NCBI GenBank assembly: GCA_029856045.1
Contig: JAHQWG010000028.1
Coordinates: 320,730 to 384,729, forward strand
Source: Promethearchaeia archaeon
GTDB lineage: Archaea; Asgardarchaeota; Lokiarchaeia; Sigyniarchaeales; SOKP01
Reading direction: 5' to 3'
DNA length: 64,000 nucleotides
The translations under genes were made by a program, and so were the position numbers. Position 1 is the first letter of the stretch. Every line of letters starts with the position of its first letter. The notes under the pieces were generated by a model. That model made no database searches. It saw only the letters and a list, made by a program, of their open reading frames with translations, and was not told the origin of the DNA. Positions 31,131 through 40,598 of the stretch are shown one piece after another.

Positions 31131-32555
31131 TTATTTATCATAAATTTTGTTTAATTCTTTTAGAAATGGCAGGAATTCTTTTGGTTGTCCAAATACAGGA
31201 ATTTTCTTTCCTCTTAGCATTTTAATAATATCATTTCTAAGTTCAGGATAATCAACGCGTTGAATAATAACAAAAATGGGTTTATGAAATTCTTTACTGA
31301 AATTAAGAGCATCTAATAAATTTTTTTCCCAATTAAGATACTTGAGAAATCTAAAACGTGGATCGAAATAAAAAGCTGGGACATCAAAGATCATCGCATC
31401 TATTTCATTATCAGATAGAGCGATTTCAAAAATTTTTTTTAAGGTCTCCATATCATAGAATTGAGCAGCAAAATCAAGTGGATTTCTAGCGCTGGTACCT
31501 CTCATATAAAATAATTTAGCAATTTTTTCTTGAATATCAACATTAAATTGTGGGACTTTAAAACCATATTTTTCAACTAAATCTGTAAGCATAACTCCAT
31601 ATCCACCGGATATGGAGACAATCAGAAAGTTTTTAACTTTAAAAGTTCCATAATAATCTAAAATTAAAGCACCACATAATAATTCAGTGAGAGTCTCAAC
31701 TTGAACAACTCCATATTGTTTGAATAAGCCATCCCAAATTTCATTTCTTCCCGCGATAGCTGCGGTATGAGTCTTTGCAGCTATTTGACCTGTGGGTGAA
31801 ACGCCACCTTTTAATAGAAGGATAGGCTTTTTGTTTTTTTCTAAAACATTTCTTAAAACTCTTCCACGTCCTTCTTTTATGCCTTCTAAATAGGCAATAA
31901 TATAATCTGTTTCATCATCTTGAGATAAATGAGCTAAAAGATCTATAAAATCAAGATCTGCCCCATTTCCAAAAGAAAAGATTTTAGAAAAGGTTAAATT
32001 TAATTCCTTTGCCATAAATATCGCGAGATTAGCAAGCCCACCTGATTGACAGATCAATCCAATTCGCCCTGATTTGCTTGGAAACCCCAAACGCCAAGCT
32101 ATTCCTTTTTTTGGATAATATAAACCCATTCCATTTGGACCGAGAATTCGCACTTTGTTTTTTGCATGTTTAATTAAATCTTTTTCCAATTGAATTCCTT
32201 CTTCTGTTCCTGAATCAGAAAATTCTGAAGTAAATATGCTGACTAATTTAACACCTTTTTCCACACATTCATCAATTATTTCTAATATCTTCTCTTTTGT
32301 AACTGCGATAAATGCAAAATCAACTGGATCTGGAACATCCTTAATTGAAGGAAAGATCTTTCCTTGGGTACCATCATCAAAACCCGGAATTTCCTTAAGA
32401 TTTGGATTTATCACAAAAATTTTTCCCTTAAAATTCTCTTGGTACGCTCTTACGAAAAAGAAGTTCCTACTTTTTGATGCACCAATAATTGCCATATTTT
32501 GGATTTTAGATAAAAATGAAATATCTTTAATTTCTGGAAGATTATCATTAAACAT
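31131..32555 (-). CDS. acdA: ADP-forming acyl-CoA synthetase alpha subunit
   Basis: IIGAS, GPNGMG, QSGG, GNGADL, YLEG, AAKTHTAAIAG, SGGYGV, NPLDF. Confidence 0.85.
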   Translation of the reverse strand: MFNDNLPEIKDISFLSKIQNMAIIGASKSRNFFFVRAYQENFKGKIFVINPNLKEIPGFDDGTQGKIFPSIKDVPDPVDFAFIAVTKEKILEIIDECVEKGVKLVSIFTSEFSDSGTEEGIQLEKDLIKHAKNKVRILGPNGMGLYYPKKGIAWRLGFPSKSGRIGLICQSGGLANLAIFMAKELNLTFSKIFSFGNGADLDFIDLLAHLSQDDETDYIIAYLEGIKEGRGRVLRNVLEKNKKPILLLKGGVSPTGQIAAKTHTAAIAGRNEIWDGLFKQYGVVQVETLTELLCGALILDYYGTFKVKNFLIVSISGGYGVMLTDLVEKYGFKVPQFNVDIQEKIAKLFYMRGTSARNPLDFAAQFYDMETLKKIFEIALSDNEIDAMIFDVPAFYFDPRFRFLKYLNWEKNLLDALNFSKEFHKPIFVIIQRVDYPELRNDIIKMLRGKKIPVFGQPKEFLPFLKELNKIYDK

Positions 32556-33741: not shown

Positions 33742-34965
33742 ATGTCAATAGAACCAATGAGAATATTTTTTAAGGAAATTAAAGAACCTATTGAAACTGC
33801 AATGATTGGAAATTATGCTGTAGCAGGGGGTGTAGCACAAACAGATCCAGATGTGATATGTGCCTTTCCAATTACACCACAAACTCAATCAGTTGAAGGA
33901 TTATCTGATGTTGTGCATCAAGGTAGATTAAAGGCAGCCTTTATTAATGTTGAATCAGAATTAGCGGCGATGAGTTATTCTACAGCTGCATGTGCTGCAG
34001 GAGCAAGAACATTTACAGCAACTGCTTCTCAAGGTTATTTATTAATGGCTGAGGCTTTACCTATGGCAGTTGGTTGGCGTGTTCCTTTAACAATGATGAT
34101 TTCGGCTAGAGCTTTTAACGCTCCGAATTTATCAATTTGGAACTCTTGGGAATTTGTTTTAATTGATTTTGGTTGGAATTGTATTGTCTCTGAAAATGTT
34201 CAAGAAACTTATGATTCTGCCATTTTATCCGTGATGATTTCAGACGCCTCATTATTTCCTACAATGTTTGTTCATGATGGTTTCATTATATCTCATTCAG
34301 TTCAACAATTAACATTAATTCCTGATGAGACTGTCCGGAATTTAACTCCGAAAATCCTGAAGCATCACATTAATCCAGAACATCCAGGAACATGGGGCGG
34401 GATTGTAACCCCTAGCTATTTTATGGAAGGTAGAATGAGATTAGATGTGGATAAAAAACCGGTTTTAAATCATATTAAAAACGTGTTTGAACGCTTTAAA
34501 AAAGCAACGGGGCGAAAATATGATTTAATTGAAACTTTTAATTTAGATAATTCTTCCAGAACTGCATTTATTACTATGGGTTCCATGTGTGGGAATATTA
34601 TAAGTTGGATGACAAAAAATAAAGATGTAGGACTTATCAAAATTCGTACATATCGTCCATTTCCTTACGAAGAATTACAAAATATAATCCAAGAACATAA
34701 TATTGAAAAATTAATTATTTTAGAGAAATCAGACTCATTAAACAATCTTATACCGCCATTCTCATCTTCAGTTGCAACTGCAACATATCCTTTAGGGACA
34801 TTATTCAGGTCTTATATTGTTGGATTAGGTGGACGAGATGTTACGAGGGATGAATTTAATGTTGCTAAAAAGAAGATGGAAAATGTAAAAGATATGAAAG
34901 GTCAGCTATATATGTATCTTGGTGTTCGAGAAAGAAAAAATAAAATTTATGGAGTGGATATATAA
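33742..34965 (+). CDS. porA: 2-oxoacid:ferredoxin oxidoreductase alpha subunit
   Basis: AFPITPQT, VESELAAMS, GARTFTATASQG, DGFIISH, YRPFP, GLGGRD. Confidence 0.9.
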   Translation: MSIEPMRIFFKEIKEPIETAMIGNYAVAGGVAQTDPDVICAFPITPQTQSVEGLSDVVHQGRLKAAFINVESELAAMSYSTAACAAGARTFTATASQGYLLMAEALPMAVGWRVPLTMMISARAFNAPNLSIWNSWEFVLIDFGWNCIVSENVQETYDSAILSVMISDASLFPTMFVHDGFIISHSVQQLTLIPDETVRNLTPKILKHHINPEHPGTWGGIVTPSYFMEGRMRLDVDKKPVLNHIKNVFERFKKATGRKYDLIETFNLDNSSRTAFITMGSMCGNIISWMTKNKDVGLIKIRTYRPFPYEELQNIIQEHNIEKLIILEKSDSLNNLIPPFSSSVATATYPLGTLFRSYIVGLGGRDVTRDEFNVAKKKMENVKDMKGQLYMYLGVRERKNKIYGVDI

Positions 34966-34967
34966 AG

Positions 34968-36053
34968 ATGTCAAAACCGGAAAAAAATATAATAAAGGTG
35001 GAAGATTTACTTGCAAAAAATGAGAAATGCAATGTATTATTCTTTAACTACGACAATGAAGCTTTTATGAATACGGGGATACAAGAGAGTGGAGGTACAC
35101 CACCCTACGCTTCAACAACTACCGGTCCCGCTGGTGAAAAGATACCTGGAAAAATAGGTGTTAAGCAAGATCTTGTAACTCCTATGGCATTTTTTGGGGG
35201 TAAATCTATGTTCTTAGCAACTGTAAATCCAGCATATCCTAATGATTTCATGGGAAAGGTAATTGAAGCATTAAAAACAAATGGTGGCGCTTTCCTCCAA
35301 GCTTACTCTGATTGTATGAGAGGATGGCGTCATGCAGCAGAAGATGCTTTAACAATATCAAAAATGGCAACAGATTGTGGATATTGGCCTCTTTATACAG
35401 TTAGAATTAAAGATGGAATACCTAAATTTTCATATTATCGCGGACTGGATGTTGATCGAGAGAAATTTATTGATTATTTAAATTCAATGGGAAGGTTTAA
35501 ACATCTTTTTAAACCAATTGTGAGACAAAAAGAAATAGATGAAATTATATACTTCACCGAATTACGAAATGAAAGATTGAGAAATTTAATTAATATTATG
35601 AGTGCAGAAAAACCTAGTGATTTATATAAGTTAAATCGAAAAAAATTCAAGCCACAAATTCATATTCAACCAGGTCATGGATTATGCCCAGGGTGTGGAG
35701 CGGGAATGGTATTGAACCAGTTAGCTACAGCAGCAACCCAAGTAGCAGGTAGGAATATAGTTTATGTAAATAATACGAGCTGTAGTGAGGTTTCCACTTC
35801 TAAAGATAATGTTAGTTCTTGGAATGTTCCATGGGTGCATCATTTATTTGAATCCGGTGCGACCGTTGCCGAGGCTATTTCAACTGCCTATAAAATCCGA
35901 AAAACTAAAGGATTATTTGACGGAGATATTCCATATGTTATTCATATTGGAGGAGATGGTTCCTATTATGATATTGGCTTTCAATTTTTCAAAGCTGCAA
36001 TAATTCGAACCAGTTCTTTTATGGAAATGAATGAATATTTAAACCAAAAATAA
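34968..36053 (+). CDS. porB: 2-oxoacid:ferredoxin oxidoreductase beta subunit, circularly permuted
   Basis: YDNEAFMNTGIQ and CMRGW lie in the N-terminal part; PGHGLCPGCG, TSCSEV, WNVPWVH and GGDGSYYDIG lie in the C-terminal part. Confidence 0.85.
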   Translation: MSKPEKNIIKVEDLLAKNEKCNVLFFNYDNEAFMNTGIQESGGTPPYASTTTGPAGEKIPGKIGVKQDLVTPMAFFGGKSMFLATVNPAYPNDFMGKVIEALKTNGGAFLQAYSDCMRGWRHAAEDALTISKMATDCGYWPLYTVRIKDGIPKFSYYRGLDVDREKFIDYLNSMGRFKHLFKPIVRQKEIDEIIYFTELRNERLRNLINIMSAEKPSDLYKLNRKKFKPQIHIQPGHGLCPGCGAGMVLNQLATAATQVAGRNIVYVNNTSCSEVSTSKDNVSSWNVPWVHHLFESGATVAEAISTAYKIRKTKGLFDGDIPYVIHIGGDGSYYDIGFQFFKAAIIRTSSFMEMNEYLNQK

Positions 36054-36976: not shown

Positions 36977-37537
36977 TTGAATAGGATTAAATGGGAAGAT
37001 ATAAGAATCGAGGATATTGGGATTAATAGCATTATAAAGTTATTAAATGTTCTTAATTCAAATTCGAATGATGCTGATAAAAATATCGCTTATAATAGTC
37101 TAGTAAAGTTAGGAAAGGAGTTAGTTGAACCATATTTAGAGAAATATTTAATTGAAAAATATGACTATGATGATAATCAAAGTGAGCTACTTCTTAAATT
37201 ACTAATAAAATTGAATAAAAATAATAATTTATGGTTCTTATTTCAATTAAAAAACCCAGATTTCGTTAAACGTGCTGTAGCAGTAGAAAAAATTGGAGAA
37301 TTAAAATTACAATCCTATTTGCCAGAAGTAATAAAATTAATAGATGATGATGATCCATCTGTTCGTTTTGCAGTCTGTAAAACATTAAAAATATTTCTTA
37401 AAGATGATATTGTAAATTTAAATCACATTTTAAAAAACGATATTCTCATACGTCTTATGGAGAGGAATACTAGAGAAAATAACCTTGTAATTAAAAAAAC
37501 TATTCAACGATTAATTTCTAATTATTTCAATGTATAA
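36977..37537 (+). CDS. HEAT-repeat protein
   Basis: DFVKRAVAVEKIGEL, LIDDDDPSVRFAVCKTL. Confidence 0.7.
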   Translation: MNRIKWEDIRIEDIGINSIIKLLNVLNSNSNDADKNIAYNSLVKLGKELVEPYLEKYLIEKYDYDDNQSELLLKLLIKLNKNNNLWFLFQLKNPDFVKRAVAVEKIGELKLQSYLPEVIKLIDDDDPSVRFAVCKTLKIFLKDDIVNLNHILKNDILIRLMERNTRENNLVIKKTIQRLISNYFNV

Positions 37538-37632
37538 TTCCTTAAATTATGAGAATTTTAAATCTATAAAGATTTATTAAATCTTAAGTTAATATGTAAC
37601 ATAGGGATACAATTAAACAAATTTGATATAAT

Positions 37633-38172
37633 ATGCCTAGTTTCGATTATACTTTTAAAGTGCTTATGTTGGGGGAAGCATCAGTAGGAAAGACTAGTCT
37701 GACGAAACGATATGTCCAAGGTATTTTTAACCCAGATGAGAAGCTGACTATCGGAGTGGATTTCTATATAAAAACTGTTGATGTCTTAGACAAAAAAGTT
37801 AAACTGCAAATATGGGACCTAGGAGGCGAACAGCGATTCCGATTTCTATTACCAACGTATTGTTTGGGAGCTAATGCGACTATTTTCATGTATGACATTA
37901 CTCGATTAAATACCTTAGAGAACATTCATTCTTGGTTATCTATAGTATATCAAAGAAGTGGATTAATTCCCATTATGTTAGTAGGTTCAAAGTTGGATCT
38001 AGAAAAAAAGGAAAGATCGGTTCCTCGAGAGTATGGAATTCAAGTAGCGGAAGAAAATAATTTATCTGGATGGATTGAAATATCGTCTAAAAATAACGTC
38101 AATGTAGATAATGTTTTTGAAACTCTTTGTAAATATATGTTAGAACGAGCAGTAAAAAGGAGTGCATTGTGA
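37633..38172 (+). CDS. Rab-like small GTPase
   Basis: GEASVGKT, TIGVDF, KLQIWDLGGE, RFRFL, YDIT, SKLD, ISSK. No C-terminal Cys prenylation motif. Confidence 0.92.
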   Translation: MPSFDYTFKVLMLGEASVGKTSLTKRYVQGIFNPDEKLTIGVDFYIKTVDVLDKKVKLQIWDLGGEQRFRFLLPTYCLGANATIFMYDITRLNTLENIHSWLSIVYQRSGLIPIMLVGSKLDLEKKERSVPREYGIQVAEENNLSGWIEISSKNNVNVDNVFETLCKYMLERAVKRSAL

Positions 38173-39226: not shown

Positions 39227-39904
39227 ATGAAAATAATAGTATTCAGCCCTCATCCTGATGATGAGATTTTTGGTTGTGGAGGTAGCATATTAAAATGGAT
39301 GGAGGAAGGACATGATGTCCACCTTATTTATATCTCTGACAATAGAGCTATAATAACTTGGGCAAAAAAACATGGATCCTTTATTGAAACTGAAGAAAAT
39401 AAAAACCTAACCGAAGAAGAAATAGCAAGGATTGGACTTCAAGAGGCAAGAGAAGCTGCAAAATTTTTAGGATTACCAGATAAAAAAGTACATTTATTTA
39501 AATTTCCAGATCAAAAAGTTAAAGACCATATTGATAAAGGTGTAGAACTTGCGAAACCTATTATAAAAGATGCCAATAGATGTGTTATTCCAAGTGCTAA
39601 TAATGAACACCCAGATCATCAAGCAACATATGAAATTACAGTAAGATCGGCTGAAGAACTCAATTTAAAAAATCTAGAGTTTTATGTGTATGCTTTATAC
39701 AATCCTTTACGAGCAGAAGGCGAGCATTTAGTTAAAATTAAGATGGGTGATTTACGCCTTAAATTATATGAAGCTCTACAGATTTATAAATCCCAGTTTT
39801 GGGATAAAGAAATGATTCGTAACAGTATGTGGGTTAAAGGAAAGCGTAGAGAAAGATTCGGATATTATAAATTTGAAGATATTGGAAAACATTATAACTT
39901 TTAA
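39227..39904 (+). CDS. PIG-L/LmbE family deacetylase (paralogue A)
   Basis: SPHPDDE...HPDH. Confidence 0.9.
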   Translation: MKIIVFSPHPDDEIFGCGGSILKWMEEGHDVHLIYISDNRAIITWAKKHGSFIETEENKNLTEEEIARIGLQEAREAAKFLGLPDKKVHLFKFPDQKVKDHIDKGVELAKPIIKDANRCVIPSANNEHPDHQATYEITVRSAEELNLKNLEFYVYALYNPLRAEGEHLVKIKMGDLRLKLYEALQIYKSQFWDKEMIRNSMWVKGKRRERFGYYKFEDIGKHYNF

Positions 39905-39923: not shown

Positions 39924-40598
39924 TTAGAAATTATAAAATTTACCAACATCTTTTAGTTTATAATAACCATATCTGTCTCTTCGTTTTCCTCGGATCCATA
40001 AGCTTTGAGGCGCCATATCCTTGGTATAAAATTGTGAGCTATGTAATTTTAAAGCTTCATACGCTTTAAAGCGAAAATCTCCTACCTTAACTTTCTTTAA
40101 ATGTTCCCCTTCTGCTTTCAACGGATTATATAAAGCAAATACATAAAATACAAGATTTTGAAGGTTAAGTTCTTGTGCTACCTTTATTGCAATATCATGT
40201 GTAGCTTGATGGTCGGGATGTTCATTATTTCCACTCGGGATAACAAACATGTTTGTATCTTTTATATTATCTTTAATTTTTTCAACCGCCTCATCGATAT
40301 GGTTCTTGAGTTCTTGATCATAAAATCTTAAGAAATGACGATTTTCTTTTTTTATTCCTAAGAATTCAGCAGATGAATCTGCCTCTTTTAATCTTATTTC
40401 AGCTAGTTGGTCTTCATTTATTCTGGTTTCTTTGCAATCTTTAAGTTCATTTCTTTCTCTTGCCTTACGATACCCAGCTCTTCCATCAGTAAACCAAATT
40501 ATATGAATATTATACCCCTTTTCGAGCCATTTTAAGATTGAGCCACCTGCTCCAAAGACTTCATCATCTGGATGAGGGGCAAAAATTATTATCTTCAT
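39924..40598 (-). CDS. PIG-L/LmbE family deacetylase (paralogue B)
   Basis: APHPDDE, TDG, HPDH, HSSQ. SD GGAGG lies just after the carB stop. Confidence 0.9.
   Translation of the reverse strand: MKIIIFAPHPDDEVFGAGGSILKWLEKGYNIHIIWFTDGRAGYRKARERNELKDCKETRINEDQLAEIRLKEADSSAEFLGIKKENRHFLRFYDQELKNHIDEAVEKIKDNIKDTNMFVIPSGNNEHPDHQATHDIAIKVAQELNLQNLVFYVFALYNPLKAEGEHLKKVKVGDFRFKAYEALKLHSSQFYTKDMAPQSLWIRGKRRDRYGYYKLKDVGKFYNF

Follow-up and report, generated by a model that had tools for sequence, protein, structure and literature searches.

Results

A 2-oxoacid:ferredoxin oxidoreductase locus with a rearranged beta subunit

The window analyzed here is a stretch of 64,000 nucleotides (nt) from a Promethearchaeia archaeon of the Asgardarchaeota (assembly GCA_029856045.1, contig JAHQWG010000028.1, positions 320,730 to 384,729 of the forward strand). 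It carries three consecutive genes of the 2-oxoacid:ferredoxin oxidoreductase (OFOR) type, which encode a fused gamma-delta subunit, an alpha subunit and, in the open reading frame (ORF) that is the subject of this study, a beta subunit whose two halves stand in reversed order (Table 1). In OFORs, it is the beta subunit that binds thiamine diphosphate (ThDP) at its diphosphate, by way of Mg2+, and that harbors the proximal [4Fe-4S] cluster. The beta ORF is tightly coupled to the alpha gene, as the initial annotation of this DNA had stated: the alpha stop codon occupies positions 34963-34965 and the beta ATG lies at 34968, which leaves a gap of 2 nt, and a Shine-Dalgarno-like box, GGAGTGG, is found upstream of the beta start.

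All the motif positions given in that annotation proved exact. The first part of the chain, which corresponds to the C-terminal half of ordinary beta subunits, contains YDNEAFMNTG starting at residue 28 (nt 35049, with YDNE at nt 35049-35060 and MNTGIQ following), CMRGW with the cysteine C116 (nt 35313-35315), and GYWPLY. The second part, which corresponds to the old N-terminal half, contains GHGLCPGCG at nt 35673, with C240 and C243 in GLCPGCG, TSCSEV with C272, WNVPWVH, and GGDGSYYDIG at nt 35949, in which the GDG triplet (residues 329-331, nt 35952-35960) is followed by the DIG helix. In this ORF, Pfam recognizes only a half-domain, TPP_enzyme_C, at residues 16-111, and this match is a bare pass (24.5 bits against a cut-off of 21.9).

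Table 1. Positions in the window of the beta-subunit gene and its segments, of the partner genes and of the neighboring genes
Feature	Positions	Strand	Content or supporting match
Beta subunit in circularly permuted order, 361 amino acids (aa) plus stop	34968..36053	+	ThDP-binding PP domain with proximal [4Fe-4S] site
N-terminal extension, residues 1-20, family-specific	34968..35027	+	Pattern NII..DLL; no match from the canonical profile
Old C-terminal half, residues 21-189	35028..35534	+	Canonical nodes 123-286; hmmsearch domain 1, 142.5 bits, 8.2e-46
Junction, residues 190-227	35535..35648	+	Old C-terminal helix, seemingly directly into old N-terminal segment
Old N-terminal half, residues 228-352	35649..36023	+	Canonical nodes 10-126; hmmsearch domain 2, 97.6 bits, 3.9e-32
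C-terminal tail, residues 353-361, family-specific	36024..36050	+	No match from the canonical profile
Fused gamma-delta subunit, 327 aa	32741..33724	+	Pfam POR 5.8e-29 (24-190), Fer4 dicluster (255-312)
Alpha subunit, 407 aa, PYR domain and domain II	33742..34965	+	Pfam POR_N 2.8e-52, PFOR_II 1.2e-12
Acyl-CoA synthetase (ADP-forming), alpha type	31131..32555	-	CoA_binding and Succ_CoA_lig; NCBIfam AcCoA-syn-alpha 282.6 bits, under the cut-off of 567
N6_Mtase-domain protein, 474 aa	29703..31127	+	NPPY motif; Pfam 5.3e-08
HEAT-repeat protein (186 aa), then Ras/Rab-family small GTPase (179 aa)	36977..38172	+	GTPase: Pfam Ras 2e-43
ORF, 323 aa	38176..39147		No Pfam match
PIG-L / LmbE-family protein, first copy	39227..39904	+	Pfam 3.6e-22
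PIG-L / LmbE-family protein, second copy	39924..40598	-	Pfam 5.6e-28

The break lies within the ThDP-binding motif

The swap of the two halves, which the initial annotation had read from the motifs, is borne out by three kinds of comparison. When the ORF was compared to the Protein Data Bank (PDB) with phmmer, residues 226-346 aligned with positions 3-114 of the Methanosarcina PorB (9bt4_C), and residues 23-192 aligned with positions 119-281 of the same chain; the beta subunit of the Moorella oxalate oxidoreductase (5c4i_C) gave the same reversed pattern. The alignment to a PorB profile that had been proposed was carried out with a profile of 307 nodes built from 61 beta-subunit representatives in canonical order. 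It yielded two matches in reversed order (Table 1), which jointly span nodes 10-286 with an overall E-value of 4.5e-76. Finally, the canonical PorB of the same genome, compared to the DNA of the window, matched it in the same swapped order. The reversed order is far beyond chance.

In canonical coordinates, GDG occupies nodes 103-105 and DN nodes 132-133, and the break falls between them, at nodes ~123-126. The chain is thus opened after the helix next to GDG and ahead of the strand leading to DN and, therefore, inside the ThDP/Mg motif, where the cut had been placed from the sequence. Because the halves are reversed, the two parts of the GDG...DN motif stand near opposite ends of the chain, GDG near the C-terminus (31 residues away) and DN near the N-terminus (29 residues away), so that the protein has neither the contiguous GDG-x(~25-28)-N motif nor the collinearity of the family. 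The cluster ligands are all retained, also as previously claimed, with C240, C243, C272 and C116 aligned to the canonical CxxC, C and C. These four cysteines are invariant in 74 sequences of the permuted family, as are G329-D330-G331 and Y28-D29-N30-E31.

At the junction, residues 186-216 weakly resemble the helix at the canonical C-terminus (columns 279-310, E 0.045), and canonical node 10 is matched already at residue 228, which leaves ~11 residues for nodes 1-9. Judging from these alignments, the old C-terminus seems to be joined straight to the old N-terminus, and no foreign linker was detected. The statement in the initial annotation that no segment is duplicated holds at the detectable level, both in the profile search and in hhalign comparisons of the termini. 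In canonical coordinates, the overlap of the two halves in the hmmsearch alignment amounts to only 4 nodes (123-126). An overlap of ~19 columns was obtained with hhalign (residues 9-28 versus columns 113-133, E 0.009) only when the genuine strand 21-28 was included; because this strand carries the match, we do not claim a duplicated segment.

The permuted gene evolves under purifying selection

The ratio of nonsynonymous to synonymous substitution rates (dN/dS), estimated approximately by the pairwise NG86 method for 13 orthologs, is 0.07 for the whole beta gene and 0.06 for each of the two core halves. The junction shows a value of 0.12, and the family-specific ends show somewhat higher ones, namely, 0.19 for the N-terminal extension and 0.17 for the C-terminal tail (residues 348-358). 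The permuted beta subunit is under purifying selection.

Predicted fold and interface with the alpha subunit

An AlphaFold2 model built with the family alignment has a predicted local distance difference test (pLDDT) score of 83 and a predicted template modeling (pTM) score of 0.88. In the model, the junction consists of a helix (187-210) and a strand (212-221) with pLDDT of 87-93, and the N-terminal extension forms a short strand (6-10) and helix (11-15). Both halves of the model fit solved beta subunits: Foldseek aligned ~120 columns at 1.9-2.2 Å to the beta domains of pyruvate:ferredoxin oxidoreductase (PFOR) and oxalate oxidoreductase, with 9bt4 as the top match, and VIA gave Z of 10-12 over ~170 residues against solved beta subunits (10.4 for 9bt4). 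Both are sequential aligners that match about half of the model in each alignment, as expected of a permutant, so that this partial coverage speaks neither for nor against the permutation.

The modeled complex of alpha and beta reached an ipSAE of 0.81, compared to 0.00 for the best of three controls, with contact agreement between runs of at least 95% and partner pLDDT of at least 85. Of 80 solved complexes, 58 attained that mark, as did 2 of 110 mismatched pairs. The predicted interface is formed by alpha residues 64-90, including the ESE segment, and by beta residues 262-316 and 339-358, including the C-terminal helix and the tail; residues 355 and 357-358 of the new tail touch alpha in the model. 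Structures of similar complexes have been solved, so that this result may reflect likeness to them and is no proof of binding.

The permuted order is widespread in one class of Asgard archaea

With a word-indexed search, we obtained 210 homologs at E<=1e-5. The 120 that were listed are mostly full-length (~361 aa), share 52-95% identity with the query, and come from NCBI, JGI, ENA and Logan assemblies of metagenome-assembled genomes (MAGs) assigned to Promethearchaeota, Lokiarchaeota and Helarchaeota. We further surveyed 400 genomes of the phylum, of which 160 belong to the class of the window and 239 to other Asgard classes. The permuted gene, either full-length or truncated by a contig end, is present in 130 of the 160 genomes of the class (families f1-f7), which answers the proposal in the initial annotation to look for the same order in other Asgard genomes. 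In the 239 genomes of other classes, no copy was found, save for one 2.8-kb contig (G075), on which the operon is complete and identity to the query is 77%; we judged this contig to be mis-binned. Exact look-up identified orthologs in closed genomes, including those of cultured strains: DSAG12_00808 (QEE14985.1) of the cultured Promethearchaeum syntrophicum MK-D1, NEF87_002873 (UYP46588.1) of Lokiarchaeum ossiferum, and MCF2138868.1 of Ca. Harpocratesius repetitus. These three proteins and most of the MAG copies are labeled "hypothetical protein" at NCBI. In a few relatives, a single in-frame TGA, TAG or TAA interrupts the permuted beta match (G162:C1:39240-40352, G274:C195:2920-4041, G273 and G123:C221); sequencing errors, pseudogenes or recoding are possible.

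This distribution bears directly on the possibility that the ORF is an assembly or gene-calling artefact of this MAG, produced by misjoining the two halves of an ordinary porB or of tandem copies. The genome is indeed an assembly of 55 contigs. However, the same order and length recur in more than 200 independently assembled proteins, the swapped order extends through the 130 genomes of the class and is seen in closed single-contig genomes of cultured strains, and the junction is conserved under purifying selection. Moreover, a search of the flanks within the window found no porB remnants. The probability that remains for such an artefact is close to nil, and misassembly is, in practice, refuted.

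Beyond the phylum, all 1.84 billion representatives of clusters at 50% identity were scanned with HMMER; 1204 of them matched, and we inspected the best 150. Among these 150, the permuted order is represented by a single full-length sequence (P0121), which is Lokiarchaeial, and by fragments, whereas the 126 others with both halves are all in canonical order. A pattern scan had also brought up bacterial loci (L080-L086) that match residues 24-352 of the query as candidate permutants; they were rejected because tblastn shows the canonical order in them.

The topology, rather than the function, appears to be new

Full-text literature searches turned up no permuted OFOR or PorB, in accord with the remark in the initial annotation that no described PorB of this topology was known. 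The beta-subunit assignment, in contrast, is already known. In the supplementary tables of Imachi et al. (2020; PMC7015854, Supplementary Tables 3 and 4), MK-D1 DSAG12_00808 is listed as pyruvate:ferredoxin oxidoreductase beta (K00170, COG1013, arCOG01601) under "2-oxoacid/pyruvate degradation", and Supplementary Table 3 gives its transcription as 286 reads per kilobase per million mapped reads (RPKM) and that of the adjacent alpha gene as 372. Hence the functional assignment is in the literature and the ortholog is transcribed, and it is the topology alone that appears unreported. That supplement contains no word beginning with "permut", and the locus tag DSAG12_00808 was found in no main text by full-text search.

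It could still be argued that the permutation is an already catalogued or common variant of the OFOR beta subunit that also exists outside Lokiarchaeia. The MK-D1 ortholog has been absorbed into arCOG01601, COG1013 and K00170, whose curators may have noticed the order, and, given that 150 of the 1204 matches were inspected, more distant OFOR beta families may hold independent permutants. However, within those best 150 the permuted order is confined to the Lokiarchaeial family and its fragments, the bacterial matches that look full-length are canonical, the 239 genomes of other Asgard classes lack the gene, and neither the literature searches nor the MK-D1 supplement gave any mention of it. We regard a catalogued or common variant as quite improbable.

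The permutation has a single origin

For phylogenetic analysis, 24 diverse permuted members were put back in canonical order and combined with the 61 canonical representatives, 8 canonical PorBs of other Asgard classes, and the two canonical PorBs of the genome that contains the window. In the resulting tree, which is unrooted and was obtained by a quick method, the 24 permuted sequences form one clade with full support (100 in the Shimodaira-Hasegawa-like approximate likelihood ratio test, SH-aLRT) on a long stem of 0.88 changes per site. The permutation has a single origin. The permuted clade is nested in a supported group (98) shared with the canonical PorB of other Asgard classes, and the two canonical PorBs of the genome itself belong to the other main group of the tree. 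Across the 400-genome sample, canonical PorB of this Asgard type is present in other classes, and none was detected at E<=1e-30 in the class of the window. This pattern fits the view that the permuted gene is the Lokiarchaeial ortholog of the Asgard-type canonical PorB.

Partner subunits and gene neighborhood

In the fused gamma-delta subunit, a POR gamma domain is followed by a ferredoxin-type delta domain with two [4Fe-4S] clusters, and the protein passes NCBIfam TIGR02175 (PorC_KorC) with 152 bits against a cut-off of 81. The alpha subunit matches PorA_Arch first among NCBIfam models, with 291 bits against a cut-off of 550. For beta, the ranking is PorB, oxalate-oxidoreductase beta and VorB, all under the curated cut-offs, with 198.7 bits for the PorB equivalog against a cut-off of 405. 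Because the alignment is split and reversed, a PorB equivalog score under the cut-off is to be expected.

Among 16 distant loci, 14 show the order gamma-delta/alpha/beta, and another 51 loci have alpha immediately before the permuted beta. Five near-complete relatives gave no beta match; the cognate alpha is missing as well from four of them, and in the fifth the alpha gene is at a contig edge. The alpha subunit is co-inherited with the permuted beta. With three genes, for the gamma-delta fusion, alpha and beta, the term heterotrimer that was used in the initial annotation is reasonable; the enzymatic activity implied there can be put forward only as a prediction. In one closed genome from the same taxonomic order, a lone permuted beta gene (G279:C1:1502548-1503603, locus L022) is located ~540 kb from the gamma-delta and alpha genes (2045958-2048099), with all three retained, and in another genome gamma-delta is present on a different contig from its partner genes. 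The operon, therefore, can break while the genes persist.

The same genome contains, on contig C27, two canonical four-subunit por/vor-type operons (354059-354979, minus strand, and 417948-418870, plus strand; L041 and L042), which encode separate gamma, delta and alpha subunits and a beta subunit of 306-307 aa in the normal order that belongs to a different clade from the permuted gene.

The gene for an ADP-forming acyl-CoA synthetase of the alpha type is divergent from the operon in the window, and such a neighbor would suit a route from 2-oxoacid to acyl-CoA to ATP. As a part of the system it was rejected: only 1 of the 16 distant loci has a weak match nearby. Farther along, the HEAT-repeat protein and the Ras/Rab-family GTPase make up a pair of the Asgard eukaryote-signature type. 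The two PIG-L / LmbE-family genes (GlcNAc-PI de-N-acetylase type) are convergent paralogs 20 nt apart and may bear on the genes for glycosylphosphatidylinositol (GPI)-like lipid remodeling noted in the window. The N6_Mtase-domain protein has a long uncharacterized C-terminal part and is possibly a methyltransferase/specificity fusion or a type IIG-like enzyme.

Discussion

Taken together, the results presented here lead us to interpret the ORF as a genuine natural circular permutant of an OFOR beta subunit of the pyruvate/2-ketoisovalerate type, to which we assign a probability of about 0.85. The chain begins with the old C-terminal half, that is, the strand with DNE, the fourth cysteine and the old C-terminal helix, and runs on, through no foreign linker, into the old N-terminus with CxxC, the third cysteine and GDG, such that the helix after GDG becomes the end of the chain. 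The Mg-ThDP site would then be built from both chain ends within a normal PP-domain fold, and the subunit would pair both with alpha, whose gene ends 2 nt before its own, and with the fused gamma-delta. Most likely, the complex would oxidize 2-oxoacids from amino-acid fermentation to acyl-CoA and CO2, with the production of reduced ferredoxin.

Duplication followed by trimming is the standard model for circular permutants. We infer such a history for this gene at the base of Lokiarchaeia (Promethearchaeia): tandem copies would have been fused in frame and then trimmed at both ends. The apparently direct joining of the old termini at the junction is what one would expect to remain after these events.

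Several observations weigh against this interpretation. The catalytic activity and the substrate range of the complex are predictions, and the long stem of the permuted clade leaves room for a change in substrate or properties. Because dS is ~1.6, that is, near saturation, the dN/dS values are approximate. The loop 32-61, which lies beside the DNE motif, has pLDDT below 50, so that the geometry of the ThDP site is beyond the reach of the model. Finally, when residues 1-20, 4-22 and 348-361 were compared to the canonical alignment with hhalign, the matches had E-values of 0.11-0.14 and fell at unrelated positions, without relics of a duplication; as no relics are detectable at the termini, the duplication origin is consistent with the data and no more than that.

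Some of these points could also be read to mean that the protein, although a real permutant, has ceased to be a standard OFOR beta subunit and is instead a catalytically altered or non-catalytic paralog. Retained alongside the two canonical por/vor operons, it might act on another substrate or serve in regulation or as a scaffold. The stem of 0.88 after the permutation would fit such a change, as would the NCBIfam scores of both beta and alpha, which are under the cut-offs; the two further four-subunit operons could serve pyruvate and ketoisovalerate; and ~30 of the 160 genomes of the class give no match, with the cognate alpha missing as well from the four near-complete ones checked. However, all classes of residues that bind Mg-ThDP and the cluster are invariant, selection on both cores is very strong (0.06), and the gene is strictly associated with an alpha subunit that keeps the ESE region with the catalytic Glu, a region that forms part of the modeled interface (alpha 64-90). 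The low family scores, in turn, are of the kind that a split, reversed alignment would yield. Thus, we consider an altered paralog unlikely and favor a permuted but otherwise standard beta subunit.

The permuted protein descends from a PorB/VorB-type OFOR beta subunit and would function in the same way. It shares with this family the residue-level, operon and interface features and departs from it in collinearity, in the contiguous motif and in the NCBI equivalog threshold. Its best match in both sequence (5.2e-43) and fold is the PorB of the four-subunit PFOR of Methanosarcina acetivorans (9bt4 chain C), with which it has in common the ThDP/Mg residues, the four cluster cysteines and a PorA-type alpha partner. 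Unlike that protein, it has reversed halves, a split GDG...DN motif, and family-specific extensions of 20 residues at the N-terminus and ~9 residues at the C-terminus; furthermore, gamma and delta are fused in the window operon and separate in the Methanosarcina enzyme. The second-best match (2.3e-40) is the oxalate oxidoreductase of Moorella thermoacetica (5c4i/5exd/5exe), a three-subunit OFOR that resembles the window system in having three genes and a fused gamma-delta-type subunit; indeed, the window gamma-delta matches OxalOxreddelta over 52-313. The Moorella beta subunit, however, is in canonical order, and we found no sign of oxalate as the substrate of the window enzyme, as its beta subunit reaches 171.9 with the NCBIfam oxalate beta model, for which the cut-off is 590. 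The nearest canonical relatives are the PorBs of other Asgard classes (326-335 aa, e.g. L032-L038; group support 98), which show 40-45% identity to residues 24-~210 of the query and have alpha directly upstream but, unlike the permuted protein, retain the canonical order.

In ThDP enzyme families, the PYR and PP domains occur in varied orders or on separate chains, and re-wiring of the chain around a conserved cofactor site is tolerated. Such rearrangements move whole domains, whereas the break described here cuts the PP domain and, within it, the very motif that binds the diphosphate. With odds that we put at slightly better than even, this would be the first natural ThDP enzyme with a chain broken inside the diphosphate motif, yet a fully active central catabolic oxidoreductase. 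The rewiring would have occurred a single time, at the base of Lokiarchaeia, where the new form displaced the ancestral Asgard PorB and became a molecular synapomorphy of the class; the new termini may, in addition, have altered cofactor loading, stability or partner contacts.

If the protein is such a permutant, it would represent a clean natural case in which the GDG-x25-28-N cofactor motif of all ThDP enzymes, regarded as contiguous, is cut yet put together from the two chain ends, with the enzyme preserved. Because the swap defeats the curated family models, automated metabolic reconstructions of Lokiarchaeia can overlook a subunit that belongs to a core, energy-conserving step in the fermentation of amino acids. 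The presence of the permuted gene in 130 of 160 genomes of one class, together with its absence from the other Asgard classes, makes it a simple clade marker, and, because two cultured strains carry it, purification, structure determination and assays are feasible. The class concerned contains cultured relatives of eukaryotes, and the change of topology would affect a central enzyme of cultured Asgard archaea.

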